Shown here in pieces: positions 20,253 through 33,309 of a stretch of DNA of 64,000 nucleotides. The notes beneath the pieces were generated by a model. The model saw only the letters and a list, made by a program, of their open reading frames with translations. It made no database searches and was not told where the DNA came from. A program made the translations under genes and the position numbers. Positions within the stretch are counted from its first letter, which is position 1. The number at the start of each line of letters is the position of its first letter. The DNA comes from Vulcanimicrobiota bacterium. GTDB taxonomy: Bacteria; Vulcanimicrobiota; Vulcanimicrobiia; Vulcanimicrobiales; Vulcanimicrobiaceae. Location of the stretch: positions 224,001-288,000 of the forward strand of contig CAWHWQ010000002.1 of NCBI GenBank assembly GCA_963833095.1, given 5' to 3'.

Positions 20253-21820
20253 GTTTTCCACTCCCATGCGTTCCATGTCGGCAAAAAGGCATTCGGCGCA
20301 AAGCCCCGCAGCCGGTCCCGGTACGCGTACACGTAGCGAGCATTAAAAAGATAGAGCAACGGCACTTGATCGGCCACGCGCCGCGCGATTGCTCCGTACA
20401 GCGCGCGCCGCCGCGCTTGCGAGACGCTCGAGAGAGCCGCCCGTTCGAGGGCGTCGACGCGCGGATCGCACCAGTGCATGTAATTCGACGGCGCCCCGCA
20501 CGCCAGGATGTCGGAATCGTCCGGATCGGCGCCCATCGTAAACGGCACATAGGCGAGGTCGAAACGCCCGGCGGCCAAAATGCCGGTGACCGGTAAGAAG
20601 AGCTGCGCGTTGCTGATGCTCTCGACCGAGACGTCGATGCCGCGCTGGCGCAGCATCGCCTGCACTGCCTCCGCCACGTGCACGCCCGTCACCGACTCGG
20701 GGAACTGCGCGTACGTGAGATGCAACGCGCGCATGCCGTTTGCGCCGCGCTTCCAGCCCGCTGCATCGAGCAGCGCATCGGCGTCTCGCGGATTGTAGCC
20801 GGGCTCGCGAATCGACGGATCGTAGGCCCAGGAAAACGGGGGTTGCAACATGTTTGTAACGGGATACGCCCCCAGCGTAATCTTCGCACTGATGGTCGCG
20901 CGATCGATCGACATCGCGATCGCACGACGCACGCGCGCGTCCTTGAGCGGTGCATGCTCGGTATTAAAAACGAGCGCGGCCACGACCGCGGTCGGCGTGG
21001 TATAGAGTCGCACGTGTGAATCGCGAACAGCGATCGTACGCTGCGCCGGAGCAATCAAATTCCAATCGAGTGCGCCGGATTGCAGCATGAGCAGATTCGT
21101 CGACGGATCCGAGGCAATGCGCACGTCGAGCCGATCGACGGCCGGCTTGCCACGCCAGTAGCGTGGATTGGCGCGGTAGGTGAGCGATTCGCCGCGTGCC
21201 CATGCCACAAGCGTATACGGTCCGTCGCTTACGTAGGGCAGCCGCGAAAGCGGCACATGCGCCGGAAGCACGACTTGCGGAATGATCCCGTAGGAAAAAT
21301 ACGTCGACGTCGCGGGCGCCCACGCGCGCCGCAAATGCAAGATCACGGTATGCGCATCCGGCGCGGTGGCGCGATCGATCAGGTCGTAGCCTTCGCGGGA
21401 GCGCACGGGATTGCGCGGATCGAGGATCTGGCGCAGCGTGTACAGCACGTCCGTGCTGGTCAACGCGGCGCCGTCGCTCCAGCGGACATTGGGTCGCAAA
21501 CGGTAGATGATGGTTCGTCCGTCAGCGGAAAGATCGCCGTTCGCAAGGCTCGGAATCCGCGCGAGAAGCACCGGCACCGGGGCCCCATGCGGGTCCAGAT
21601 CGAGGAACGGCTCGTAGGCGAGGCGCGCAAGCTGCGCCTCGGCCGAGGACGCGTCCGGCTGAATGAAGAGCGGGTTGAGCGTCGAGGGATCTTTTGCAAG
21701 ATCGAACCGCACGAGTCCCGCCGGTGGCGCCGCGGGGCTGCCGCCTTTGGCGCAGGCAGCCCACGATGAAAATGCGAGGACCGAAATGGCAGCGGCCAGA
21801 TATCCTCTGGCGCTAAACAT
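20249..21820 (-). CDS. peptide ABC transporter substrate-binding lipoprotein (family 5)
   Basis: Lipobox WAA-C; LNP, LRPNVRWSDGAALTSTDV, GPYTL, NPRYWRG, VRRAIAMSIDR. Confidence 0.92.
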   Translation of the reverse strand: MFSARGYLAAAISVLAFSSWAACAKGGSPAAPPAGLVRFDLAKDPSTLNPLFIQPDASSAEAQLARLAYEPFLDLDPHGAPVPVLLARIPSLANGDLSADGRTIIYRLRPNVRWSDGAALTSTDVLYTLRQILDPRNPVRSREGYDLIDRATAPDAHTVILHLRRAWAPATSTYFSYGIIPQVVLPAHVPLSRLPYVSDGPYTLVAWARGESLTYRANPRYWRGKPAVDRLDVRIASDPSTNLLMLQSGALDWNLIAPAQRTIAVRDSHVRLYTTPTAVVAALVFNTEHAPLKDARVRRAIAMSIDRATISAKITLGAYPVTNMLQPPFSWAYDPSIREPGYNPRDADALLDAAGWKRGANGMRALHLTYAQFPESVTGVHVAEAVQAMLRQRGIDVSVESISNAQLFLPVTGILAAGRFDLAYVPFTMGADPDDSDILACGAPSNYMHWCDPRVDALERAALSSVSQARRRALYGAIARRVADQVPLLYLFNARYVYAYRDRLRGFAPNAFLPTWNAWEWKT

Positions 21821-22223
21821 TAACCTTGCGTATGTGCTTTTGTTTCAATGATCCGTTTTCGAGAACATCATAGAAGACTCCCAATTGCATCTTGGCCGCC
21901 TGTTCTGCAATCGCGGGCCACGCTCGGAAGAAACACGCAAGCTGCCTCCTGATAGGCCGTGAGGAGAACCCGTTAGGCAAGAAAAATGCGCGCCCGCGGT
22001 ATTTTTGGTAGAGCGCGCACTCAACATGAGTCTTTCCTCTCGTTTTTATTTGTGCCTGATCGGCCGTAATAACCACCAGTCCATCTCGGCAAACGCGAGG
22101 TATCCATTCACTATCTTTTGTGTCGGCGCGGTAGAGATCCGTCAAGTGAATAACATCTTCGCCGAACAACTTAAGAGCGGCGGAAAAGTTCGGCGAAATA
22201 CAGGCGTCGAGAAAGAACGTCAA
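21813..22223 (-). CDS. VapC45-like PIN-domain toxin (DUF5615/PIN_10 type)
   Basis: FFLDACIS, KDSEWIP, VVITAD motifs; translationally coupled to a DUF433 gene. Confidence 0.8.
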   Translation of the reverse strand: MTFFLDACISPNFSAALKLFGEDVIHLTDLYRADTKDSEWIPRVCRDGLVVITADQAQIKTRGKTHVECALYQKYRGRAFFLPNGFSSRPIRRQLACFFRAWPAIAEQAAKMQLGVFYDVLENGSLKQKHIRKVNV

Positions 22224-22963
22224 GCGGCCAATTCTAGCCTTGTCTCGTACTCGATCGCATCTTCGACACCGTTCTCAGACACTCGATACCAGGCCGCAAT
22301 CCGCTTGATCGGTTCCCCCGCCTTATGCATCCCATAAAGAGCGTACGTTGGAACACCCGTCTCGCGGTTAATAGGCGCGCCAAACGAACGCTCCGGGTCT
22401 AAGACGACGGACTTGCCCTTACCGAGTGGCGTGATTTCTCTTGCAACATCGCCATCGTAAACGACGATATCGTGCAGAAGTGGCTTCACTATCGTCTCGA
22501 ACGCTCTATTACCCGATGCCAGCTCTACGAGACCCCCATCTCCGCTAGACTTCTTCGCAAAAATCCCGCCACCGTAGAGACTATATTTTCTAGTGGCAAA
22601 CGGATATGCCCCGAACTCCGCCCTCGCCGCCGAGTACGCATCTCGAATATCCCGCGTCCGGACATTTTCAGCGCGCATTGCAGCAACCGTCATAAGCTCG
22701 ATTAGCTCAAGAAATCTAATAGTGTCTCGTTCCGCAATCTTCAGATTTGCCGAATGAACGACGGCGGCGTAGCTCTTGATAAACTCTTTTCTGCCGCGTC
22801 GCCAGCGTCTCAGACTGGCCTGCGCAATCTTTGTTCGCAGGGCTTCTGTCAGGATTCGAGCGGTATCAGCAACGGAGTATAGGCCAACACCAAGCAGGTC
22901 GTCGGCATCGAACGCCAAGCTCACGCGAAAATCACCATCTTGCGCCAGACTTGGGCGAGCCAT
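22220..22963 (-). CDS. VapB45-like antitoxin (HTH plus DUF433)
   Basis: GLYSVADTARIL, FLELIEL, YPFAT, LDPERSFGAP..TGVPT, IAAWY..VEDAIEYE. Confidence 0.85.
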   Translation of the reverse strand: MARPSLAQDGDFRVSLAFDADDLLGVGLYSVADTARILTEALRTKIAQASLRRWRRGRKEFIKSYAAVVHSANLKIAERDTIRFLELIELMTVAAMRAENVRTRDIRDAYSAARAEFGAYPFATRKYSLYGGGIFAKKSSGDGGLVELASGNRAFETIVKPLLHDIVVYDGDVAREITPLGKGKSVVLDPERSFGAPINRETGVPTYALYGMHKAGEPIKRIAAWYRVSENGVEDAIEYETRLELAA

Positions 22964-23157: not shown

Positions 23158-23626
23158 ATGATTATCTCCGAGGACCTCGATCAGCTCGACCTTGCGCTGT
23201 TGGACGCACTTCAGCGCAATGGACGCTCGACCTTCGCCGAGCTCGGCGCATTGGTTGGGCTCAAGCCGCCCGCCGTCCACGATCGCGTGAAGCGGCTCGA
23301 ACAGCGCGGCCACATCCGCGGCTACAGTGCGCAACTCGACGGTCGCAGTCTGGGCCTCGAACTGATCGCCTTCGTGAGTTGTTATACGACTCCGGACGCC
23401 GCTTACGATCGGTTTACCAAAAGCTTGAGTGAGATGCCCGAAGTGTGCGAGGTCCATTCCGTGGCGGGCGAAGAGTCGTTCGTCTGCAAAGTGATGACGC
23501 GCTCGACGCACCACCTCGACGAGTTGCTCTCTCGTCTCAAGGCGACTGCCGGGCATGGCGCGCACCAAAACCACGATCGTCCTTTCGACACCGTTCGAAC
23601 GCGACGGTATCTCGGTGCGCTCGTGA
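23158..23626 (+). CDS. Lrp/AsnC transcriptional regulator (one frameshift near 23547)
   Basis: LDQLDLALLDALQRNGR..VHDRVKRLE..I.GY; the C-terminus LPGMARTKTTIVLST is in the next frame. Confidence 0.9.
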
Positions 23627-24700
23627 GCATCGCGCCTGGGCGACGATTGCATCCGCTGGGCACGCATCGCGTGATAGATCCGGCCGGCGCCATGCCGCAG
23701 AACGCTTGGAAGGTCGACAACACGCCGGTCGCGCTTGATAACGAAATTCTGTGCGAAGTCGAAGTGCTCAATATCGACTCGGCTTCGTTCAAGCAGATCG
23801 CCGACGCATGCGACGGAAACGCCGCGCGGATTGCGGAGCACGTTGAGGGCACCGTCCGCGAACGCGGCAAGCAGCATAACCCGGTCACCGGCAGCGGCGG
23901 CATGTTCATCGGTTACGTTCGGCAGATCGGCAAGCGATCTGCGCGACTCGCTCGACCTTCACGCGGGCGAACGCATCGCCTCGCTCGTCTCGCTCACGCT
24001 CACGCCGCTGCACATCGAATCCGTCGAACGCGTCTGACTTGACAACCGGGCGCATTTGGATTCGCGGGAAGGCGTGCTGTTCGATCCGGCCTGTGGGCCA
24101 CGCTGCCGGACGACATCGATGAAAACGTCGCGCTTGCCGTGCTCGATGTCGCGGGCGCGCCGGCACAAGTTCGCCGTCTCTGCGAGCCGGGACAAACCGT
24201 CGTCAATTATCGGCGCCGACGGCAAGAGTGGAATGCTCGCGTGCGCGCAAGCCAAAGCGCGCGTTGGTTCGAGCGGCCACGTCATCGGCATCGCTCCGTC
24301 GGATCAGACCGAAGCAGCAAGACTGCTCGTCGAGCATGGCTTGGTCGACCGTTTCATCGTCGCCGACGCTCGCGACGCGCTCGACCTTAGCGAAAAGGTT
24401 GCGCTGCACGCACTGCAGCTCGCCGACGTGACGATCAATTGCGTCAACGTCCCCGGAACCGAGCTGGCCTCGATCCTGTGCACCAAGGACCGAGGTACCG
24501 TGTACTTCTTCTCGATGTCGACGTCATTCACTGCGGCCGCCCTCGGCGCCGAGGGCGTCGGCAAAGACGTCACGATGATCGTCGGCAACGGCTACGTGCG
24601 CGGTCACGCGGAGACCGCCTTGCAGACGCTGCGCGATCACCCCGCGATTCACGCCTACTTCACACGCCACGCTACGCCGACCGCATCAAGGAACCAGTAA
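23623..24700 (+). CDS. kdd: L-erythro-3,5-diaminohexanoate dehydrogenase (frameshifted)
   Basis: GTHRVIDP..PQ.AW, LNIDSASF.QI, RGKQHNPVTGSGGM, SLVSLTLTPL, LDVAGAPAQ, FFSMSTSFTAAALGAEG..GNGY. Confidence 0.88.
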
Positions 24701-24703
24701 ACC

Positions 24704-26082
24704 ATGAGCGAGATCACGCATCTCAAGCCGCCCGTCCCGCCGTCGCAGTTCGAATACAAGCACCTCAAGCAGGGCGAGTTTTGGCGTCACATTCCCGCCT
24801 ATCGCGAGATCGACGAGGCGACGTTTCTCGATCATCTCTGGCAGCAGAAAAATGCGGTCAAAACGCCGCAAGAACTGCTCGCGACGATCAAAGATCTCGT
24901 GCTCGCCCGGAGTTCTTTGCCGACGTGGAAGAAGGCTTCGCGCGCGCGCCGATGGCCGTGCGCGTCTCGCCGTACGCGCTCGCGCTGATCGACTGGAAGG
25001 ATCCCGTCAACGATCCGATTCGCCGCCAGTTCGTTCCGCTTGCCTCCGCGCTGCTGCCCGATCATCCGCGGCTGACGCTCGACTCGCTGCACGAACAGGA
25101 CGACTCGCCGGTTCCAGGCCTCGTGCACCGCTACGTCGACAAGGCGCTCTTTCTTCCGCTCAACACGTGTCCGGTCTACTGCCGCTTCTGCACGCGCAGC
25201 TACGCGATCGGCCCGGATACCGAGAACGTCGACAAAGTCGCGCTCGCCAAAACGCCCAAGCAATGGGAAGACGCGTTCCAATACATCAGCGAGCGGCCCG
25301 AGCTCGAAGACATCGTCATCTCCGGCGGCGACACGTATCAGCTTCCGCCGAAGAACATCGAGCTCATCGGCAACGCGTTGCTCGACATTCCGCACGTGCG
25401 CCGCATGCGCTTTGCGACTAAAGGCCCGGCGATCATGCCGATGAAGATCATGACCGACACCGCGTGGCTCGATGCGCTCACGGCGATCGTCGACCGCGGC
25501 CGCGCGATGGGCAAGGACGTCGTGCTGCACACGCACTTCAACGCCCCGAAGAGATCACGTGGATCACGGAAAAGGCGATGCGCTCTGCTCTTCGAGCGCG
25601 GCATCTTCGTGCGCAACCAGTCGGTGCTGATCCGCGGCGTCAACGACACGCCCGAACGCATGGCGCTGCTGGTCAAGCGGCTCGAGTACGTCAACGTTCA
25701 TCCGTACTACGTCTACATGCACGACATGGTCAAGGGCGTCGAGGAGCTGCGCACGACGATCGCAGACCGTCGATCGAGATCGAGAAGTTCGTGCGCGGCG
25801 AACCGCCGGCTTCAACACGCCGACTGTTCATCTGCGATGCGCCGGGCGGCGGCGGGAAGCGCGACGTCCACTCGTTCGACTACTACGATCGCGAGAACGG
25901 CATCTGCGTCTACACCGCGCCGAGCCGTCAAACCGGACAAGGCGTTCGTCTACTTCGATCCGATCGATAAGCTCTCGCCCGACGCGCAAGCGCGCTGGGC
26001 CGTCAAGGAGCTTGCCGACCAGATGATCCGCGAAGCCCTTCGTAGGGCGGGCGACGCGGCCGACGAGTTGGTCCTGGCATAA
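24704..26082 (+). CDS. kamA: KamA-family radical SAM aminomutase (lysine 2,3-aminomutase-like), frameshifted
   Basis: DPIRRQF, GLVHRY, CPVYCRFCTR, ISGGD, HTHFN, NQSVL.RGVND, PYY, DAPGGGGK (PLP lysine). Confidence 0.88.
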
Positions 26083-26116: not shown

Positions 26117-26797
26117 GTGCAGGAAGCACGACCGCCGAAGGCGGACCGAACCGTGGTGAATGAGAAGGCCTTTCGCCTCGACTTCTTCATTGCGATTGCC
26201 GCGCTGCTGGTCAGCACGCTGACGGCTGCGACGTTGCTCTACCAGACGCACGTCATCAGCGACCAGTACGCGGCGACCATCTGGCCCTATCTGAGCAGCG
26301 GGTCGACCGCAGATCCCAACGGCGTAGCGCTTACGGTTGCGAACGACGGGTTAGGACCCGCGCTGATCGAATCGGCGCAGCTTTCCATCGACGGTGTCCC
26401 CGTCCCGTCGTGGGGCGCATACTTCGCGCGACTCACGCGCGACCCGATCCTACGCGTCTACTTTTTAAAGGTGCGCCGGCTTAGTGCGGCCGGAAAATTA
26501 CCGTCCGACGCGGGCATCACAACGGGATCGATCAGCCCCGGCACCACCATTCGGCCGGGGGACAAGCTCACGATCCTGCACGTGCACCTGCCGGGCCTAC
26601 CGCTGCCGGCCGTGCTGCGCCACGCGTTGGTCCTAGATTTCTGTTACTGCTCGCTCAACGGGAGCTGCTGGACGCTGCACAACGACACCGAATCCGAAAA
26701 AAGCGAGCAGCCCAAACCGGTCTCGCACTGCACGACCTCGGCAGCGATCAGTGCATCGTTTGCTACGTCCCCTTCTGTGCGCCCGCGTAGAAAATGA
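26117..26797 (+). CDS. membrane-anchored hypothetical protein
   Basis: One N-terminal TM helix; WPYL..NDGLGPALI..CYCSL..CW. Confidence 0.7.
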   Translation: MQEARPPKADRTVVNEKAFRLDFFIAIAALLVSTLTAATLLYQTHVISDQYAATIWPYLSSGSTADPNGVALTVANDGLGPALIESAQLSIDGVPVPSWGAYFARLTRDPILRVYFLKVRRLSAAGKLPSDAGITTGSISPGTTIRPGDKLTILHVHLPGLPLPAVLRHALVLDFCYCSLNGSCWTLHNDTESEKSEQPKPVSHCTTSAAISASFATSPSVRPRRK

Positions 26798-28805
26798 CTT
26801 TGAAGATCGCTTGCGGGACCGTGATAAGCGTGTTTGGATTGCCGTAGGCGAGATAGAACTCTTCGCTGCGGAGCCGCAAGTGATAGGCGACGGAGATGTT
26901 CGTGCAGGTTCCCTCGCAGTTGCCCCCGCCATTCGGTTGCGGCGGCATGCCGACGACCTTGCGCACGCCGATCGCAAACGACGAGCTTCGATCGATTTGA
27001 TAGCTGTAACTCACGCTGTCGAACCATTGGATGTTATCGGGGCCGTACTCGCGCAGCCATTGCGCGGTATTGTCGACGGCAAACGTTAGGTACCCGCGCT
27101 CGCCGATGCGCATCGTCGTGCTGCGATACCACGTATCGAGGCGGCCGAGCCCATAGCGTCCGGTATAATATTGAATCTGCGTCGGGGTCGCGGATGATCC
27201 GTGCGACGGAAAGTTGCCGACGTTGTTCTGCGTACCGCTGTGATACGTGAGGCTGAACCCTCCGTTCTGCGAGATCGGCGTCATCACGTCTCCGAAGCGC
27301 CAATAACTGGAGCCGGAGAAGAGCTGCAAATCGATTGTGCTCTTCGTCAGCAGGTCGAGGAGGATCTGGTTGTCCGTTTGCGCTTGCCCGTATTGCACGC
27401 CTTGATACCGATCCATGAAGAGGCTCACGCCGGCGGAAAGCAGCTTGTCGTTTGGCGAGAGGGTCCAGATGCGCGCGGTGTAGAGCCCGTAACCGGCGAT
27501 TCCGGGGTGTGAATCGAATCCGTCAACCGGATTGAACTGGCTGCCGACTTTGCGGACCGATCCGTAGAGCGCGAACTTCTGATTGCCCCAGCCGCCGCCC
27601 GCGTCGAGCCACCGTCCTTGCGAGGGATCGGTCACGAGGGTGCCCGATTCAATCGCATCGTTGGCGTAAAAGCTGAGGTACTTGCCGTTCCACCAGTTCA
27701 CGCCGGCCTCGTTCGTGTCGTCCTGAAGCCCCGGAATATCCGTGATTACGTGCTGAAACGCGCCGCCCCAATGCGTGTCCGGCGAGGTATAGTTCAGCGC
27801 CGCCGCGGCGTCGGTTCGATCGTCGCCGATGGCGTCGAAGGCGGCAAGCCCGAATTCGCCCTGCTTGCCCTCGAGCGCGTAGCCTTGAGTGGGCGTGGGT
27901 ATTCCCGGTGTGTACAGCGTCGTGCGATAACCGTTACACACGTTGCAGTTGAAGTCGTTGAAGAAGCTCGCCGCCTGCGTGAAGAACGGGCGCACCTCGC
28001 TATAGGTGCGCTGGAAAACCGTCGGCGAGATCGATTGCTGATCGAGTTCGACGTTCGAGTAGTCGGGATGAAGTGTCCCGAAGAACGAGGCCGTCTGCGC
28101 GATCGGGATCGAGAAATCCATGCCCACGCGCGAGGTGCTACCGCCGATCGTACGGCTTGCTGCCTCTCCCAACGCATAGGGCGCGACGCGCGGACGCGGT
28201 AGCGGCTGCTTCGCAATCTGCGTGAACGTCACGCTGCCGGCGCGCGCGGCATCATCGGGATTCTGCTGCGCCGGATCGTACGACCACACGTCGAGATCGC
28301 CGGTCGATCGAACGTACCGCACGAACTGCACGCGCCACGTCCCAGCGTGCGCCCCGTGAACGACGGCGAGCGGAATGGCCATCGTTACCGTGTAGCCGTC
28401 CTTGGTTCGCTCTCCATGCGATTCCCAATGCGGCGAGAAGCCCACATTCTCGCTCGAGGCCTCGTTATGAGCCCCGATCGGGTTCGACTCGAACTGATAC
28501 TGAAATCCCGCCGGACCGGTCGGCCACAAGTCGACCCACACGGCGTCGTCGCTCCAGGCGATGCCGCCGCCGATGTTACTTCCGCCGGTGACGGTATCGT
28601 CAGCGTGTTGCGTTGCGGTAATCGACTCGGTCTGCACAGCATCGAAACGCACATAGAGCATTTTTCCGTCGCTCCACACGTAGGCGTCGGTTTTATCCTG
28701 GGCGGGGCGCGCGTGATCGACATCCCACGCCAACGTCACGTGCGCCGCCGGCGTCGCCGTGGGGACAGCGAACGCTCCGATGAGCGCGAGCAAGGATGCT
28801 ATCAC
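26763..28805 (-). CDS. DUF5916 / CBM9-like probable outer-membrane protein
   Basis: Signal peptide; CBM9-like N-terminus (LYVRF, DAVWVDL, YTVTMAIPL); TLHPDYSNVELD..EVRPFF motif; aromatic beta-strand C-terminus. Confidence 0.75.
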   Translation of the reverse strand: MIASLLALIGAFAVPTATPAAHVTLAWDVDHARPAQDKTDAYVWSDGKMLYVRFDAVQTESITATQHADDTVTGGSNIGGGIAWSDDAVWVDLWPTGPAGFQYQFESNPIGAHNEASSENVGFSPHWESHGERTKDGYTVTMAIPLAVVHGAHAGTWRVQFVRYVRSTGDLDVWSYDPAQQNPDDAARAGSVTFTQIAKQPLPRPRVAPYALGEAASRTIGGSTSRVGMDFSIPIAQTASFFGTLHPDYSNVELDQQSISPTVFQRTYSEVRPFFTQAASFFNDFNCNVCNGYRTTLYTPGIPTPTQGYALEGKQGEFGLAAFDAIGDDRTDAAAALNYTSPDTHWGGAFQHVITDIPGLQDDTNEAGVNWWNGKYLSFYANDAIESGTLVTDPSQGRWLDAGGGWGNQKFALYGSVRKVGSQFNPVDGFDSHPGIAGYGLYTARIWTLSPNDKLLSAGVSLFMDRYQGVQYGQAQTDNQILLDLLTKSTIDLQLFSGSSYWRFGDVMTPISQNGGFSLTYHSGTQNNVGNFPSHGSSATPTQIQYYTGRYGLGRLDTWYRSTTMRIGERGYLTFAVDNTAQWLREYGPDNIQWFDSVSYSYQIDRSSSFAIGVRKVVGMPPQPNGGGNCEGTCTNISVAYHLRLRSEEFYLAYGNPNTLITVPQAIFKVIFYAGAQKGT

Positions 28806-29578
28806 GGAAGCACTGCACCATCGAGTGAGTTATGTGATTTATCCTCGAGCAGCGACGCACCGACTCTTGCGCACGTACGCTCGCCGTCACGATCGCGATC
28901 GCAGAGCTGCGCTCCGGTAAAGACGGCGCCGCGAACCGAGGCGCCGCGCAGATCCAGGCAGACGACCTCACGCTGAATCGTGACGCCATCCACTTCATCC
29001 GCGTTGTGCGTGCAGACCCATGCATTGCGAAATGAGGTACCGTCGACGCGCGCATCCTGCATGTCGGCGCCGACGACGTCATCGCCGTCAAAGATCGCGC
29101 CCGAAAGATTGCCGCGACGGAAGCTCGCGCCGACGAAACCGGCGCCGGTCAAATTCTGGCCGTGAAGGTCGACGTCGCCGAAGTTCGCACCGGTGAACTC
29201 CGCCCCGTTCAATTTTGCGCCCTCGAGGCGCGCGCCGCGCAGGTTGGCGCCTACGAGTTTTGCGCCACGCAGGTCCGCGTTGCGCAGGTCGGCGCCTTCG
29301 AGATTCGACCCGGTGAGGCGCGCATCGCGCAAGTTCGCCGAACCAAGATCGCTTTCGCGAAGGTTCGTCCCAACATAGTCGACGCCGTGAAGATCCGCAC
29401 CGTGCAAATTCATGTGTGAGAGATTGCAGCCGACGCAGCGGTTTGGAATGCCGGCAGCGCGCGCTGCCGGCGCTCCGGCTGCTATGGCAATTACCGCGCC
29501 GGCGAGGCCCAGGTTTCGAATGAGTGCGATCACTTTGAGTGCCGTCATTGTTGCCGGTTCTACCTTTCTCGAATCCAT
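28802..29578 (-). CDS. secreted pentapeptide-repeat protein
   Basis: Signal ..AAGAPAARA; CVGCNL cap then A(D/N)LxX repeats. Confidence 0.9.
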   Translation of the reverse strand: MDSRKVEPATMTALKVIALIRNLGLAGAVIAIAAGAPAARAAGIPNRCVGCNLSHMNLHGADLHGVDYVGTNLRESDLGSANLRDARLTGSNLEGADLRNADLRGAKLVGANLRGARLEGAKLNGAEFTGANFGDVDLHGQNLTGAGFVGASFRRGNLSGAIFDGDDVVGADMQDARVDGTSFRNAWVCTHNADEVDGVTIQREVVCLDLRGASVRGAVFTGAQLCDRDRDGERTCARVGASLLEDKSHNSLDGAVLP

Positions 29579-29643
29579 GAAGAGTCAAAACGATACCCGG
29601 GGCGCAGTTCGCCCATATCGTTACGAGGAGTTATGAAGGGTGT

Positions 29644-31593
29644 CTAAGGGCCGGTGAGGGACGCTCCCGAAAAATCACATCCAATGAACTTGGTGTCGTC
29701 CGTGTTCGCGCCCCGTAGGTCCGCGCCGGAGAAATCGACCCCACTGAAAATCGCGCCGGCAAGATTTGCTCCGCGGAGATTTGCATGGCTGAGGTCCACG
29801 CCCGTGAGCTTGATACCGCGCAAGTCCATGCCGCTGAGATTCGCGCCGTGCAAATCGCAACCGCTGCAACGCGGTAGATACGCCCGGATCTGCGCTTGCG
29901 AGAGCGTGCGCACATCGATATCAGAGCCGCTCAGATTGGCGCGATCGAGATTTGCACCGTCGAGCTTTGCACCGGCGAGATTGGCGCCGGACAGATTCGC
30001 CCCGTTGAAGGAAGCGTTGCGCAGATCCGCACCTTCGAAGTCGACACCGCTGAGATTAGCCCCGTTGAAGTTTGCACTTTGAAGATTCGAGTGGCTGAAA
30101 TCAGAGCCCGTCAAATTCGAGCCCGCGAAGTTCTTGCCCGAGAGATTCTGGTTCTCAAAATCACACCCCGAACAGTTCATTCCGCCGTGGACGTCGCCGA
30201 CCGACGCAACGACGCGCAACGGCTTGAGCGCCTTCGATAGCGACGAGTCGACCTCGGATGAGATCCTCGACGCCAATCCCGCCGTCGAGGCGGCGATTGA
30301 CGTCGCCTGCGCGGCCGATTTCTCGGCGATCGCCTTGACCTTCGCCGGCGCCATGGTCACGCTAACGTTCGGAATCGTGAGCGAGACCTGCGGTAAAGTC
30401 ATCGCAATTTTGGGCGCAGTTACCTTGAACGGCGCAATGACAGGTGCGGCGGGCGCTGCGGCGACGGCCGGGGGACACGGCATCGCAAACGCCACGACCG
30501 GCGTCAGCGAAAACGCTAACAAATACCCGGCGACGAGTCCCACGGCGACGAGTGTAGCCGTTGCGGGCGAGATCGACGAGCCGATTGCGCGACCCGTGCG
30601 CAAGAGCCGCTCGATGCGGATCGAGATGTTCTTGCGCGTCGTGAACACGCCCGGCGCCGCGAGCGGCTGGTGCGGCCACGAGGTTCTCTCGGCCATTTTC
30701 GTGAGGCAAAAGGCGTAGGTCCGCACTGCGCCGGTCAGCTCGAGAACGTAGTCGTCGCACGCGACCTCGCGTTCGATGTCCATCTGGCGCGCGATGAACC
30801 ACACTGCCGGGTTGAAGAACAGCAGGGCGCTAATGACCCGCTGCAAGCCGTTGCTCCAATCGTCATGGCGCAGCAAGTGCGCAAGCTCATGCAAACTGAT
30901 CTGATCGATTTCTTGAGCATCGAACTCCGCCAACAAATGCTGCGGCAAGAGGACCATCGCATCGAACAGACCCACCGCGACGGGGACTTCGATTCCGTCG
31001 GTGACGCAGATGCGGACGTCGCGATCGCGCGCATCGAGGCGCTGCCATTGCACGAGCTGATCGCGGTACTCCATCCCGAGGGGCATCGCGTCTTGCTTGA
31101 GGCGTTCGAGACGAATCAGGGCAATGGTAAGGCGCGCAACGAGAGCAAGGGCCGCAATGCCCCACGCCGTGAAGAAAATCGTAAGGATGAGGAACGGCAG
31201 GTTCACGTGCAAGTCTGGGATGCGAGGCAGGCTCATACTGCCGCCTTGGGAGTACCTCGCTCCGCTCGCAGAACTTCGGGGTTGCCTCGCTTCGCTCGCT
31301 TTTGTCTTTGTGCGCTCGCTGCGCGAGGCAACGCCCTCAGCGTTGGATGATTGCGTGGTAGTCGTCGCGGGTAGGGTGTAGGACGAGACACGCGATAGGC
31401 TGGTTGCGATCGGTACGACGAGCACCGCGACGAGTGCGACCGTCCACGCCGCATAACGCGTTGACGCGTTCACTTGCGGAAATACGCGCAATGCGAGCCA
31501 CGTTAATCCGGCGATTGCCGCCCCCTGCCAAAGGCCGTTCACCAGTACGACAAGCGCGACGCGGGCAATGATTTCAAACAGTGACGGATGCAT
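29644..31593 (-). CDS. BlaR1/MecR1-type M56 peptidase fused to two pentapeptide-repeat solenoids
   Basis: N-terminal TMs, TRYAAW, P..VG, LHELAH zinc motif, FFNPAVW, EREVACD, RIERLL; then a TM, an Ala/Pro linker and two CSGCD-capped pentapeptide arrays. Confidence 0.9.
   Translation of the reverse strand: MHPSLFEIIARVALVVLVNGLWQGAAIAGLTWLALRVFPQVNASTRYAAWTVALVAVLVVPIATSLSRVSSYTLPATTTTQSSNAEGVASRSERTKTKASEARQPRSSASGARYSQGGSMSLPRIPDLHVNLPFLILTIFFTAWGIAALALVARLTIALIRLERLKQDAMPLGMEYRDQLVQWQRLDARDRDVRICVTDGIEVPVAVGLFDAMVLLPQHLLAEFDAQEIDQISLHELAHLLRHDDWSNGLQRVISALLFFNPAVWFIARQMDIEREVACDDYVLELTGAVRTYAFCLTKMAERTSWPHQPLAAPGVFTTRKNISIRIERLLRTGRAIGSSISPATATLVAVGLVAGYLLAFSLTPVVAFAMPCPPAVAAAPAAPVIAPFKVTAPKIAMTLPQVSLTIPNVSVTMAPAKVKAIAEKSAAQATSIAASTAGLASRISSEVDSSLSKALKPLRVVASVGDVHGGMNCSGCDFENQNLSGKNFAGSNLTGSDFSHSNLQSANFNGANLSGVDFEGADLRNASFNGANLSGANLAGAKLDGANLDRANLSGSDIDVRTLSQAQIRAYLPRCSGCDLHGANLSGMDLRGIKLTGVDLSHANLRGANLAGAIFSGVDFSGADLRGANTDDTKFIGCDFSGASLTGP
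31248..31340. repeat. palindromic GCGAGCGAAGCGAG-type repeat cluster inside the M56 gene linker
   Basis: Inverted repeat GTTGCCTCGC (31281-90) / GCGAGGCAAC (31323-32) plus tandem CCTCGCT[CT]CGCTCGC units; same core at 59144-59158. Confidence 0.6.
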
Positions 31594-31597
31594 GGTT

Positions 31598-31978
31598 TTA
31601 TGCGTCCTCGTAACGTTCGATGAGTGAACGCAACCGCGCAAGCTCCTCGTTCGAGGGCCGCTCATTCTCGATCAAACGAAGCGCCAGCGCGCCGGTGCTG
31701 TTGCCGAAGAATTTCTCGACCACATTCTTGACGGCGCTTCCGGCTGCGGCGTCGCGGGCAACGAGCGGACGATAGACGAACGCGCGGCCGGCTTCCTCGT
31801 GCGAGACGTGGCCCTTTTGCTCCAAAATACGCAGGGTGGTGAGCACGCTGTTGTACGCCAGCGGCGGCGGAGGGAGCGCTTCGGTGACTTCAGCAACGGT
31901 AGCGCGTTCGAGGCGCCAAAGCACCTCCATGATGCGCAATTCAGCTTCGGTGAGCGTTGGTGAGGGGCGACGGGGCAT
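31598..31978 (-). CDS. BlaI/MecI/CopY family repressor
   Basis: LTEAELRIMEVLW, LAYNSVLTTLRILEQKGHV, GRAFVYRP, FFGNS. Confidence 0.93.
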   Translation of the reverse strand: MPRRPSPTLTEAELRIMEVLWRLERATVAEVTEALPPPPLAYNSVLTTLRILEQKGHVSHEEAGRAFVYRPLVARDAAAGSAVKNVVEKFFGNSTGALALRLIENERPSNEELARLRSLIERYEDA

Positions 31979-31994
31979 GCCGGGTTCTCCTATC

Positions 31995-32055
31995 TCCTAA
32001 TTCCTTAAGAGCAGAATACCCCGGCCGCGTCCGCTTGTCAACTAATAGCTTAGTT
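31995..32055 (-). promoter_or_regulatory. sigma70 promoter with two BlaI-type operator palindromes
   Basis: TTGACA (32041-36)-17 bp-TATTCT (32018-13); operators AACTAA-GCTA-TTAGTT (32040-55) and TCTTAA-GGAA-TTAGGA (31995-32010). Confidence 0.8.
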
Positions 32056-33022
32056 CGCCGTAGGCGACCACCGGGCAGTTGACCACGAACCCGGCAGCCT
32101 TGGCTAGCGGGGCAACCTGCGCGTAACTGGTCAAACGCGTGGTTTGGGGAGCGCCGACCACCATCACGTTCCAAAGCGGGCTGTACCCATTGGCTGCATA
32201 GGGGTGCGCGAGGTCCGGAGCAAGCGAGAGCACGTTGAAGGGCGAGCCGATCTCGGCTGCGTTTGAGAGTGTCGCGTCCTGGTCGAGGGGTGTACCAAGG
32301 CTGAGATAGGCCAGCCCCTGCGGCGCACTCCCGGTCTGCGGACCGTTGACCACGACGCCGATCGGAATCTCTGCGCTCGCCGACGCTTTCGCCAGATTCG
32401 GCGCGAAGGTCGCGCGTTCGACGCTCGATGCGACCGGATCTGACGCTTCGGGGCTAAAGTAGTAAATCGGCTGACCATTAAAAAAGCCGCGTGCGAGGGT
32501 GAGCGTAACCGTCATCTTCGCCGGGTCGATTGCAAGCACGCGATCTTCGGTATTGCTATGCGTCGCAACGTCGAACGGTCCGTCGCCGGTGGCAACAATC
32601 GGCGCGTTGAGGACGCCTGCGATGCCTTGCGCATGCACGAACGGTGAATATTCGGAATCGGCTTTACCGCCCGGTGTCGCCGACGCCGGCGGGAAACCCG
32701 TCGCGCTCGCGACGTAGGTTCGGGTTGCGCCGAAACTCGGCGCACCCGCGAACGTGTATGTGCCGTCGGAATTCTTCGTCGCGCGCTGTGTCGCAGCCGT
32801 ACCAATCGAAGCCAGACTGGGCGCAAAATTCACACCGAATTTTCGCGCGACGGCGGGATCCGACGCATCGGTGAGGATGTACCACACGGTCTTACCTTCC
32901 TCGATGCCGCGATGGAGCGGTAACGTCGCTGTGTGGTTGGTCGTATCAACCGCGAGCGCGCTCGTAATCGTAAACTGTGAATGCGGCAACAACACCGCAA
33001 GTAATGCGAATAATACACTCAT
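32042..33022 (-). CDS. secreted hypothetical protein with an internally duplicated domain (DUF7482-like)
   Basis: Two halves T.TL.L.RG...(VW|IY)Y...(D|E)ASD...YSP, ending VVNCPVV. Confidence 0.7.
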   Translation of the reverse strand: MSVLFALLAVLLPHSQFTITSALAVDTTNHTATLPLHRGIEEGKTVWYILTDASDPAVARKFGVNFAPSLASIGTAATQRATKNSDGTYTFAGAPSFGATRTYVASATGFPPASATPGGKADSEYSPFVHAQGIAGVLNAPIVATGDGPFDVATHSNTEDRVLAIDPAKMTVTLTLARGFFNGQPIYYFSPEASDPVASSVERATFAPNLAKASASAEIPIGVVVNGPQTGSAPQGLAYLSLGTPLDQDATLSNAAEIGSPFNVLSLAPDLAHPYAANGYSPLWNVMVVGAPQTTRLTSYAQVAPLAKAAGFVVNCPVVAYGELSY

Positions 33023-33057
33023 GCTGGTTGGTACGCTCGCAGAAGGCGAGCGGTTTA

Positions 33058-33309
33058 CTAGCCACCGGCAATTTTCGCGCGGCGCCCCTGCGCGACAAAC
33101 CACGCAACGATGCGCTCGCGGTGATCGCCCTGGATCTCGACCACGCCGTCTTTGCTCGTTCCACCGGTTCCGCAATGGCGTTTGAGCGCCTTAGCGATCT
33201 CGTCGGTCTCTTGCGGCGCAAGACCATGGACGAGGCTGACCACGCTGGCCCGGCGCCGTTCGCGCGCGACGCGAATGACGCCGTCAGAGGGCATTGAGGG
33301 TTTGGGCAT
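33058..33309 (-). CDS. yciH: SUI1/YciH translation initiation factor-like protein
   Basis: DGVIRV, LKRHCGTGGT.KDGVVEIQGDHRE, KIAGG. Confidence 0.9.
   Translation of the reverse strand: MPKPSMPSDGVIRVARERRRASVVSLVHGLAPQETDEIAKALKRHCGTGGTSKDGVVEIQGDHRERIVAWFVAQGRRAKIAGG

Follow-up and report, generated by a model that had tools for sequence, protein, structure and literature searches.

A BlaI/M56 locus with a pentapeptide-repeat sensor, a likely variant of the protease-triggered envelope-stress switch in mostly uncultured soil bacteria

The locus described here is likely a variant of the protease-triggered envelope-stress switch, since a BlaR-type protease is joined to a repeat domain and to a DNA motif common to secreted copies of that domain, barrels and repair enzymes. 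The unit of four genes is conserved in a family of soil bacteria, most of which are uncultured. Non-canonical BlaR sensors are already common in print; what is new is the operator layout and its remote gene set.

The reading that we favour, and hold to be somewhat more probable than its negation, is a non-canonical BlaI/M56 envelope-stress switch in which the tethered periplasmic solenoid would report damage or bind a stressor. Under stress from metals, acid or oxidants or at the surface, this solenoid would be lost, unfolded or shed, and this would be the trigger, as the loss of YjbI is in Caulobacter. The M56 protease would then cut itself, before F317, and cleave the BlaI bound at palindromic operators, while the induced free secreted solenoids could damp the response as negative feedback.

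The four genes all lie on the minus strand of the window (the whole 64,000-nucleotide stretch of DNA analysed):

31598..31978, minus strand: blaI, BlaI/MecI/CopY-family repressor, 126 aa (PF03965, E 6.6e-31; MecI 1sd6, E 3.8e-7 over residues 9-121)
29644..31593, minus strand: M56 membrane zinc protease with two pentapeptide solenoids, 649 aa (PF05569, E 1.8e-32, residues 28-329; PF00805, E 1.3e-46)
28802..29578, minus strand: secreted pentapeptide-repeat protein, 258 aa, cap CVGCNL (profile match, homologue alignment)
26763..28805, minus strand: DUF5916 protein, 680 aa, N-terminal CBM9-fold sandwich and predicted barrel (Pfam, fold comparison)

This run, including the intact HELAH motif of the protease, had been reported by the first-pass annotation and was confirmed for all four genes, as was the cysteine cap shared by the sensor (CSGCDF and CSGCDL) and the secreted protein. 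blaI and the fusion gene are spaced by 4 nt, and the 4-bp overlap claimed for the DUF5916 gene is GTGA, where its start meets the stop of the secreted pentapeptide gene. An alternative start of the latter at 29548 would fit its 248-aa orthologue. A terminator scan of the locus gave nothing above chance.

The neighbourhood was compared in 81 loci, namely the window and 80 others chosen across genera from the best M56 matches. blaI lies beside the protease gene in 81/81, and the M56–pentapeptide fusion is intact in 67. Among these 67 loci the barrel gene adjoins the fusion in 60, the secreted solenoid gene is next to it in 56 (an adjacent secreted copy is absent from the other 11), and all four genes stand together in 50, in agreement with the association first noticed in the window. 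The fusion is not a product of chance, as both PF05569 and the pentapeptide domains are present in 118 of the 120 best-listed homologues, query included. The sensor split in two at five loci, tallied separately, and the broken 5' part at loci L040 and L106 look like assembly frameshifts.

The sensor protein carries the following features:

30877..30891, minus strand: HELAH zinc motif, residues 235-239 (alignment of 98 homologues)
30754-30768, minus strand: third zinc ligand E276 with D280, E276xxxD280 (alignment; BlaR1 comparison)
30643..30645, minus strand: invariant F317 in APGVF, putative autocleavage P1' residue (spacing compared with BlaR1)
30487..30567, minus strand: fourth transmembrane (TM) helix, residues 343-363, then the motif T-P-x-[IV]-A-[FY] (alignment, TM prediction)
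29914..30174, minus strand: solenoid 1, residues 474-560, CxGC cap, starting CSGCDF (median net charge -5 across homologues)
29647..29868, minus strand: solenoid 2, residues 576-649, CxGC cap, starting CSGCDL (C639 conserved in 97/98)

Four TM helices are predicted, with the N-out/C-out topology of BlaR1 and HExxH...ExxxD between TM3 and TM4. H235, E236, H239 and E276 are invariant in 98/98 homologues, and D280 is kept in 97; their equivalents in BlaR1 are H201EXXH and E242XXXD (PMC9834060). Structure comparison with BlaR1 (PDB 8EXR) gave a TM-score of 0.63 on the target with an rmsd of 3.1, and the NF000326 profile, which has a cut-off of 400 bits, reached 86.5 bits, over residues 39-331 only. 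The invariant APGxF317 and R326, nine residues further on, stand at a spacing that, by sequence comparison only, is BlaR1-like, with F284 and R293/R294 as counterparts (PMC9834060); from this we infer a putative autocleavage before F317, in a loop that would precede the last cytoplasmic helix. P365 and A368 are invariant within the conserved motif after TM4, a possible signal-peptidase shedding site by analogy with BlaR1, which is cleaved by SpsB (PMC9834060). According to the available text of the same source, the BlaR1/BlaI and MecR1/MecI systems of S. aureus further share the upstream repressor gene, the four TM helices, the cytosolic HExxH...ExxxD, the outside C-terminal domain and, in BlaR1, a Phe at the presumed autocleavage position with a possible shedding site after TM4. 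However, BlaR1 and MecR1 carry a penicillin-binding (transpeptidase) domain where the window sensor has pentapeptide repeats.

The helices, their BlaR1-like arrangement and the invariant cysteine pairs place the solenoids, by prediction, outside the cytoplasm, as the first-pass annotation had supposed. Their outward-facing residues are mostly variable across homologues, so that no binding patch stands out. The secreted protein has, as read from its sequence, a secretion signal and cysteine pairs flanking a beta-helix, in the manner of YjbI/PerA: a hydrophobic leader is found in 74/76 homologues and six cysteines are invariant in 76/76. That the solenoids are cytoplasmic DNA mimics protecting gyrase under BlaI control, like Qnr and MfpA, is suggested by their fold and by weak profile matches to both proteins, but this can hardly be right, given scores of 63.5 and 53.4 bits against a curated cut-off of 240, a solenoid that comes after the fourth TM helix, and the leaders and cysteine pairs of the free copies.

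A promoter with twin palindromes, missed by the first-pass annotation, was found at 31995-32055:

32040..32055, no strand assigned: distal operator, palindrome AACTAA-N4-TTAGTT (20.6 bits; matrix trained on other genomes)
32013..32041, minus strand: sigma-70-type promoter, TTGACA-17-TATTCT (sequence scan; conservation)
31995..32010, no strand assigned: proximal operator, immediately downstream of the -10 box (20.9 bits; matrix trained on other genomes)

The palindromes (YTAA-N4-YTAR) flank the promoter, so these putative operators cover the repressor's own promoter; the distal one shares sequence with the -35 box and also with the stop codon of the DUF7482 gene that lies upstream. This is the sole promoter-like site in 26.5-32.3 kb, where 1.6 are expected by chance, and the case for it therefore rests on conservation. 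At least one putative operator occurs within 110 nt of blaI in 60/70 loci, and two in 51/70; the operator-TTGACA-operator pattern was found in 128/192 family genomes, with 0 in the reversed control. The BlaI and MecI operators of S. aureus have a TACA/TGTA box, from which the window-type motif differs; by analogy, BlaI would be the protein that binds this motif.

Sensor and secreted protein exchange their repeat type as a matched pair. Related M56 sensors carry an alpha-helical repeat or a toastrack (GIN) domain in the place of the solenoid. Next to the alpha-helical-repeat sensor, on its downstream side, a secreted protein of the matching repeat type is encoded in 8/9 cases (no NCBIfam family scored above cut-off for two alpha-repeat proteins searched), and at locus L127 a GIN-domain sensor, a secreted toastrack protein and a DUF5916 barrel share one operator-led operon. 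Both types fall among the pentapeptide sensors in the midpoint-rooted M56 tree (row L099 left out), in which the direction of the swaps is only inferred.

It has been proposed that the tethered solenoid pairs end to end with the secreted one, the switch then counting the free or mis-sorted copy. The matched repeat type in three sensor types would suit such binding of like by like, as would the finding that sensors P0263, P0277, L126 and L141 contain the C-terminal cysteine segment of the secreted protein itself, and a last-coil cysteine (conserved in 97/98) that could meet another cap. However, no cognate sequence match between sensor and secreted solenoid was found (median rank 25 of 56, none first; identity 37.3% for cognate against 37.0% for non-cognate pairs), 11 of the 67 intact loci lack an adjacent secreted copy, and a common ligand accounts for the type matching equally well. 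The specific pairing claimed in the first-pass annotation thus finds no support, and we regard this explanation as unlikely.

The disulfide gating raised there fares no better. In such a thiol switch, a redox change or metal binding at the CxGC caps and at the cysteines of the last coil would gate the protease directly; C474, C477, C576 and C579 are indeed invariant in 98/98 sensors, seven periplasmic cysteines are present in 68/98, and MsrA lies behind the operator in three genera. However, paired cysteines of exported proteins are mostly structural, and CxxC is found in 0/9 sister sensors with a near-identical operator. Furthermore, while a BlaI/BlaR-type pair is described as sensing copper in Synechocystis (bioRxiv 2020.07.31.226407), the zinc-induced turnover of the analogous YjbI does not need its cysteines (PMC12864828), and a direct thiol switch appears improbable.

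Returning to the favoured switch, its putative output can be read from the motif. Of the sites that the matrix gives in the window's genome, the top five and one of 14.7 bits form three pairs, at the blaI promoter, the only other pentapeptide gene (product 42% identical to the sensor double solenoid over 178 residues) and a 56-aa signal-peptide gene. The plain count of sites (10, 6 and 5 above 12, 15 and 18 bits) barely exceeds that of 20 permuted matrices (4-36, 1-10 and 0-4), and only pairing and layout are telling. Across genomes, 62 remote sites were classed by hand, with families checked for examples and 65 further pattern matches lying outside the tally: 19 precede a small secreted peptide, 15 a DUF5916 barrel, 8 a winged-helix/TPR regulator, 6 a secreted solenoid, 6 an FxGWGP peptide with an S9 peptidase, 3 an FxGWGP peptide with MsrA (3 genomes only, one in each of the three genera), 2 an FxGWGP peptide without either enzyme, and 1 each an Asp/PDZ protease, a toastrack and an unreadable gene. 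This tally is weighted by kinship, most small-peptide sites coming from one genus and all S9 and TPR sites from another. In genomes with both sensors, a remote site may belong to either, because the operator of the alpha-repeat paralogue is nearly identical. When barrels were chosen first, a site lay within 300 nt of 9/20, compared with 2 in the ~38 kb further upstream; of the 11 lacking one nearby, 2 stand behind a pentapeptide gene and 1 in an operator-led operon. The motif layout before remote genes makes co-regulation of the locus with solenoids, barrels, small peptides, proteases and MsrA well supported at the sequence level. The secreted solenoid and the barrel, earlier taken to be a co-regulated output, are co-conserved and carry or share the motif. 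BlaR1 and MecR1 control a beta-lactamase or PBP2a, whereas no beta-lactamase or PBP was found in the operon or behind the 62 sites.

The 680-aa protein is predicted to be an outer-membrane barrel of ~24 strands (counted from the DSSP line of a model with pLDDT 73.5). Its DUF5916 match (PF19313) scores 23.7 bits against a gathering cut-off of 22.6 over profile positions 8-84 of 572 only, and DUF5916 occurs in 19-33% of the members of its nearest Atlas clusters. The CBM9 likeness claimed for it stands by fold (Z 18.7 and 17.3; the best match of the N-domain has an rmsd of 2.6 over 176 residues) but not by Pfam in the window copy. Alignment of the barrel with solved structures by sequence gave no match; by fold it is about equally similar to MtrB, SusC-type, FyuA and usher proteins (Z 14-16, rmsd 4.5-6). 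TonB-dependent transporters have a 22-strand barrel, an N-terminal plug domain and a TonB box; the N-domain here has the CBM9 fold. The hydrophobic leader is only 13 residues long, and a signal peptide is missing from many operator-led barrels, a puzzling trait if they are outer-membrane proteins.

These genes could instead form a nutrient-uptake regulon, in which the barrel imports a sugar or peptide cut by secreted peptidases and sensed by the periplasmic solenoid. The CBM9 fold of the N-domain, the strong conservation of the barrel (68-87% identity among its 101 best-aligned homologues), the S9 and Asp/PDZ proteases behind the operator and a tricorn protease following a related sensor in a Blastocatellia-labelled locus all point that way. 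However, a shared CBM9 fold is no proof of function, the 62 remote sites hold no glycoside hydrolase or sugar transporter, and MsrA, toastrack and free solenoids suit repair better. Moreover, a barrel paralogue in the genome follows a PadR-like and a membrane-protein gene, in a layout resembling the PadR/HAAS stress pairs (bioRxiv 2020.09.24.301986), HAAS being called by eye. We consider nutrient uptake quite improbable. Still, a regulon with proteases and possible import functions fits nutrient scavenging too, which counts against the favoured switch.

The proposed envelope-stress switch has close parallels among described systems. CenIR of C. difficile (PMC13492132), PvmSR of P. aeruginosa (bioRxiv 2026.08.03.742534) and PetRP of Synechocystis (bioRxiv 2020.07.31.226407) likewise have an M56 protease with a non-transpeptidase tail. 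As reported in the parts consulted of PMC13492132, the exported protein encoded next to CenIR is the target that it induces most, the CenIR regulon relates to the envelope, and a screen for its signal found none. Here, unlike in these three, a folded repeat domain forms the tail and has a free secreted counterpart with a gene of its own, and both change type together. YjbI/PerA of Caulobacter crescentus shares the secreted quadrilateral beta-helix, flanking cysteine pairs, envelope stress, outer-membrane barrels and proteases; zinc, copper, acid or sucrose stress leads to the loss of YjbI, which is then re-induced in a reset loop (PMC12864828). YjbI-type proteins are located in the LPS layer and depend for their function on a charged C-terminal tail. 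However, YjbI is a free protein acting via two two-component systems, whereas in the window the signalling protease carries a fused copy and repressor cleavage is the proposed output. Toastrack and HAAS-PadR stress modules also couple beta-helical repeat domains to membrane signalling: the available text of bioRxiv 2020.09.24.301986, in which the word 'peptidase' does not occur, describes pentapeptide repeats fused to HAAS and unifies GIN (DUF2807) and DUF4097 as Toastrack. It reads toastrack as intracellular, whereas the toastrack and pentapeptide domains here have leaders or follow M56 TM4.

A broader proposal, which we put forward tentatively and think probably overreaches, makes the tethered, sheddable copy of the secreted repeat protein it controls, whether pentapeptide, alpha-helical repeat or toastrack, a design principle of M56 receptors. 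Sacrificed when the periplasm or outer membrane is damaged, this copy would report the damage and drive a class-wide regulon around the uncharacterised CBM9-barrel, some copies of which would reach the envelope without a signal peptide, and two new small-peptide families.

No fusion of M56 or BlaR to pentapeptide repeats was found in the literature searched (main texts, few subscription papers), nor Eremiobacterota together with pentapeptide; the term DUF5916 was likewise not found, in sources mostly outside subscription papers. The architecture thus appears uncharacterised, as had been claimed, but calling it a new envelope signalling system overstated the case: ~94% of M56 proteins lack the penicillin-binding domain, and as many as 254 architectures have been recorded (PMC13492132), although pentapeptide is absent from the main text of that source and from the abbreviations of nine common architectures in its Fig. 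7 legend. Most M56 receptors have no known signal, and in the window system the sensor fold is defined, the operator precise and the regulon readable, which makes a reporter screen straightforward. It links a specific regulator to exported pentapeptide proteins and to DUF5916 barrels, both open topics, and gives the outline of what is likely the envelope-stress response of a soil lineage that is widespread but mostly uncultured. The matched domain exchange suggests that, for other orphan BlaR-like receptors, the secreted protein under their control may allow a guess at the signal.

Finally, five FxGWGP and two small secreted peptides matched no NCBIfam family searched. A small secreted peptide resembles residues 458-465 of the sensor linker in the window copy, but its role as a linker mimic was rejected, as only 42/98 linkers beat their own shuffles (mean 13.5 against 13.8). 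By eye only, the FxGWGP peptide may resemble the autocleavage loop or the dimer helix of BlaI.

The four genes lie in one orientation where the first-pass annotation placed them, beginning with blaI and followed by an M56-pentapeptide fusion (the sensor), a secreted pentapeptide protein (the secreted solenoid) and a DUF5916 protein (the barrel).

32040-32055 and 31995-32010: twin copies of the putative operator, the palindrome YTAA-N4-YTAR
31598-31978 (-): blaI, product matched by profile PF03965
29644-31593 (-): sensor, 649 aa, M56 protease with two pentapeptide solenoids
28802-29578 (-): secreted solenoid
26763-28805 (-): barrel, 680 aa, overlapping the preceding gene by GTGA

In all features testable here, the system belongs to the BlaIR family, and it is not a beta-lactam sensor. 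According to PMC13492132, about 6% of roughly 15,000 M56 proteins carry a transpeptidase domain, across 254 architectures, so that non-canonical tails are the rule. Public gene calls already give the M56-pentapeptide fusion an automatic label. Direct literature searches, with thin coverage of subscription journals, found no paper on this fusion or on DUF5916. The locus carries more structure than the first-pass annotation saw.

Going by the labels of homologues and records, the system belongs to Vulcanimicrobiota/Eremiobacterota. Of 301 phylum genomes, 187 have an M56 relative and 216 the barrel, with both confined to two families; these tallies include up to seven genomes flagged as unpublished (G128, G213, G233, G238, G246, G248, G264), which contribute to the counts but not to any sequence analysis. 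Locus L116, labelled Armatimonadota, also holds blaI, fusion and barrel. A non-random sample of 80 loci, picked across genera from the best M56 matches, plus the window, comprised 67 intact fusions, 5 split sensors and 9 with another tail. Among the intact fusions, the secreted solenoid directly follows the sensor in 56, the barrel lies downstream in 57 (on either side in 60), and all four genes occur together in 50. Two neighbours were also noted:

32042-33175 (-): secreted DUF7482 protein, its stop codon inside the distal operator; several genus members have a same-strand gene of similar size upstream of blaI
26156-26797 (+): convergent gene overlapping the barrel 3' end by 35 nt, retained across the genus, with no match in Pfam or NCBIfam

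Upstream of blaI, one palindrome overlaps the TTGACA box of the promoter (TTGACA-17-TATTCT) and the other lies directly past the -10 box. Within 110 nt of blaI, at least one putative operator is found in 60 of 70 loci and two in 51; in the ten loci with none that near, a short ORF intervenes and the operators stand further upstream. The exact operator-promoter layout recurs in 30/61 relatives and 128/192 family genomes (reversed control, 0). Where the barrel is flipped away from blaI (L050-52, L091), it retains its own operator. The putative operator and its regulon are new here.

A scan of the window's own genome (G000), using a matrix trained on other genomes, ranked three site pairs at the top: those at the blaI promoter, at a 56-aa signal-peptide gene, and at the only pentapeptide gene outside this locus, whose product is 42% identical to the double solenoid of the sensor and amounts to a free version of it. 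The two remote promoters lie at G000 C5:243282 and C1:335924. Matches over 18 bits numbered 5 against 0-4 for permuted matrices; this raw excess is small, and the regulon argument rests on pairing and layout. A set of 62 non-blaI sites, classed by hand in a tally skewed by kinship (65 further matches lie outside it), precede small secreted peptides (19), barrels (15), FxGWGP peptides (11; 6 then an S9 peptidase, 3 then MsrA, 2 neither), winged-helix/TPR regulators (8), secreted solenoids (6), an Asp/PDZ protease, a toastrack and an unreadable end (1 each). A check that started from barrels found an operator within 300 nt for 9 of 20 of them, versus 2 sites in ~38 kb beyond, both of which head a hydrolase-barrel operon.

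Two peptide families accompany these sites. The first, of 34-42 aa, ends in FxGWGP and has no signal sequence; 33 distinct sequences occur among the fetched loci (L numbers), and five tested gave no NCBIfam family. Several genera have it as the first gene after the operator, and in L120-L123 it closes the operon; in the own genome it lies opposite a gene for an ECF-type sigma factor and in front of a GntR/ABC operon. It may be a common envelope-stress effector or a leader peptide. The second, of 51-60 aa, has a signal peptide and immediately follows twin operators; its profile matches 26/192 family genomes (11/11 in the genus), and it is a candidate secreted signal or metal-binding peptide.

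L075:2475-2591; L273:363-479; L261:356-457; L123:11571-11678: FxGWGP peptides
G000 contigs C5:627174-627299 (-); C8:55428-55532 (-): FxGWGP peptides, own genome
L211:1321-1488 = G000 C1:335746-335913 (-); L292:390-569: peptides with core K-[IT]-I-A-[TV]-V-V-A-H

In an alignment of 98 sensor homologues, residues H235, E236, H239, E276, F317, R326, P365 and A368 never vary, and neither do the two CxxC caps. The sensor model (mean pLDDT 79.5, pTM 0.57, disordered linker) surrounds the protease core with helices 5-37, 43-68, 134-168 and 343-363, with short strands at 69-73 and 367-371, and fits 8EXR, the structure of the BlaR1 TM/protease part, at rmsd 3.1. PMC9834060 describes BlaR1 as N-out/C-out with a cytosolic active site, self-cleaving before F284 and shed by signal peptidase after the last helix. 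Because of this topology and the 8EXR match, the sensor solenoids are predicted to be periplasmic; by the same analogy, autocleavage would take place at F317, and shedding may occur at the TPxxA motif. Both solenoids have a mildly acidic character, with outward faces variable for the most part. Action as a cytoplasmic DNA mimic is scarcely credible.

In nine close relatives, an unnamed alpha-helical repeat replaces the solenoids, and the next gene encodes a secreted protein with the same repeat in eight and a barrel in the ninth. The nearest Atlas clusters of this repeat are unnamed and mostly from Acidobacteriota.

L097-L105, L154, L194: alpha-repeat BlaI/M56 sister system, repeat in sensor and secreted partner

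Two further sensors carry a GIN domain; L127 is ordered operator, secreted toastrack, blaI, sensor, barrel. GIN and DUF4097 are united in one superfamily in bioRxiv 2020.09.24.301986. Two pentapeptide loci (L122, L123) likewise have a toastrack ahead of blaI, so the GIN-toastrack match may be inherited. In an M56 tree of uncertain root, a 100/100 clade unites the alpha-repeat rows and 28 pentapeptide sensors; the GIN rows fall together with three others (90/99). This matched domain exchange between sensor and secreted protein is a new observation. The specific pairing of sensor and secreted solenoid proposed at first gained no support: a cognate sequence match was looked for and none was found, which, on sequence grounds, speaks less for lock-and-key pairing than for a ligand or a fragility common to both. 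Sensing by like binding like, for which the exchange might speak, is rated unlikely.

The sister systems' motif is nearly identical to the operator, so cross-talk is possible; no sister system was found in the own genome (80.7% complete). The same promoter layout with twin operators accompanies related M56 sensors whose tails are coiled or HEAT-like in L169 and L174 (Blastocatellia labels) and L162 (Ca. Binatus label), with a tricorn protease after L169; the M56 subfamily extends outside Vulcanimicrobiota. The own genome holds two more BlaI/M56 pairs with different promoter sequences:

G000 C1:669.6-671.2 kb (L113): TonB_C tail
G000 C5:84.0-85.6 kb (L114): weak Kelch-like tail

The model of the 680-aa protein (pLDDT 73.5) combines a CBM9-fold domain (Z 18.7) with a barrel of ~24 strands, which resembles several outer-membrane families to an equal degree. 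Many homologues have normal signal peptides; the window copy has a 13-residue hydrophobic lead. Several operator-led barrels (L304, L305, L306, L314, L288, L289, L196, L244) have neither a signal peptide nor space for one, starting directly after operator and ribosome-binding site, ~5 residues before the first CBM9-fold strand, which weakens the claim of an outer-membrane location. Nutrient uptake as the system's role is quite improbable. Two paralogues were seen in the own genome:

G000 C1:917262-920631 (L296): PadR-like gene, membrane protein (HAAS-like by eye), DUF5916 paralogue over two frames
G000 C5:608585-610867: third DUF5916 paralogue

An envelope-stress switch is given slightly better than an even chance as a whole sequence. 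BlaI would repress its own operon and the remote genes; an envelope insult would alter, unfold or shed the tethered solenoid; the sensor protease would cut both itself and BlaI; the cell would then make barrels, proteases, MsrA and free solenoids, and these free copies would take up the insult or return the system to rest. The regulatory skeleton, apart from its trigger, is held with high confidence. A solenoid change under envelope insult is the most likely trigger by analogy with YjbI, which, according to PMC12864828, is lost under Zn, Cu, acid and sucrose stress and then re-induced, its turnover being independent of its cysteines. A thiol switch, despite the invariant caps, is very unlikely.

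Two other features of the window were noted:

23158-26082 (+): Lrp/AsnC regulator, zinc-dehydrogenase-like gene and radical-SAM gene (lysine 2,3-aminomutase-like by eye), which look frameshift-broken, probably through assembly errors
21813-22963 (-): gene pair that by eye resembles a toxin-antitoxin pair of VapB45/VapC45 type (DUF433 plus PIN)
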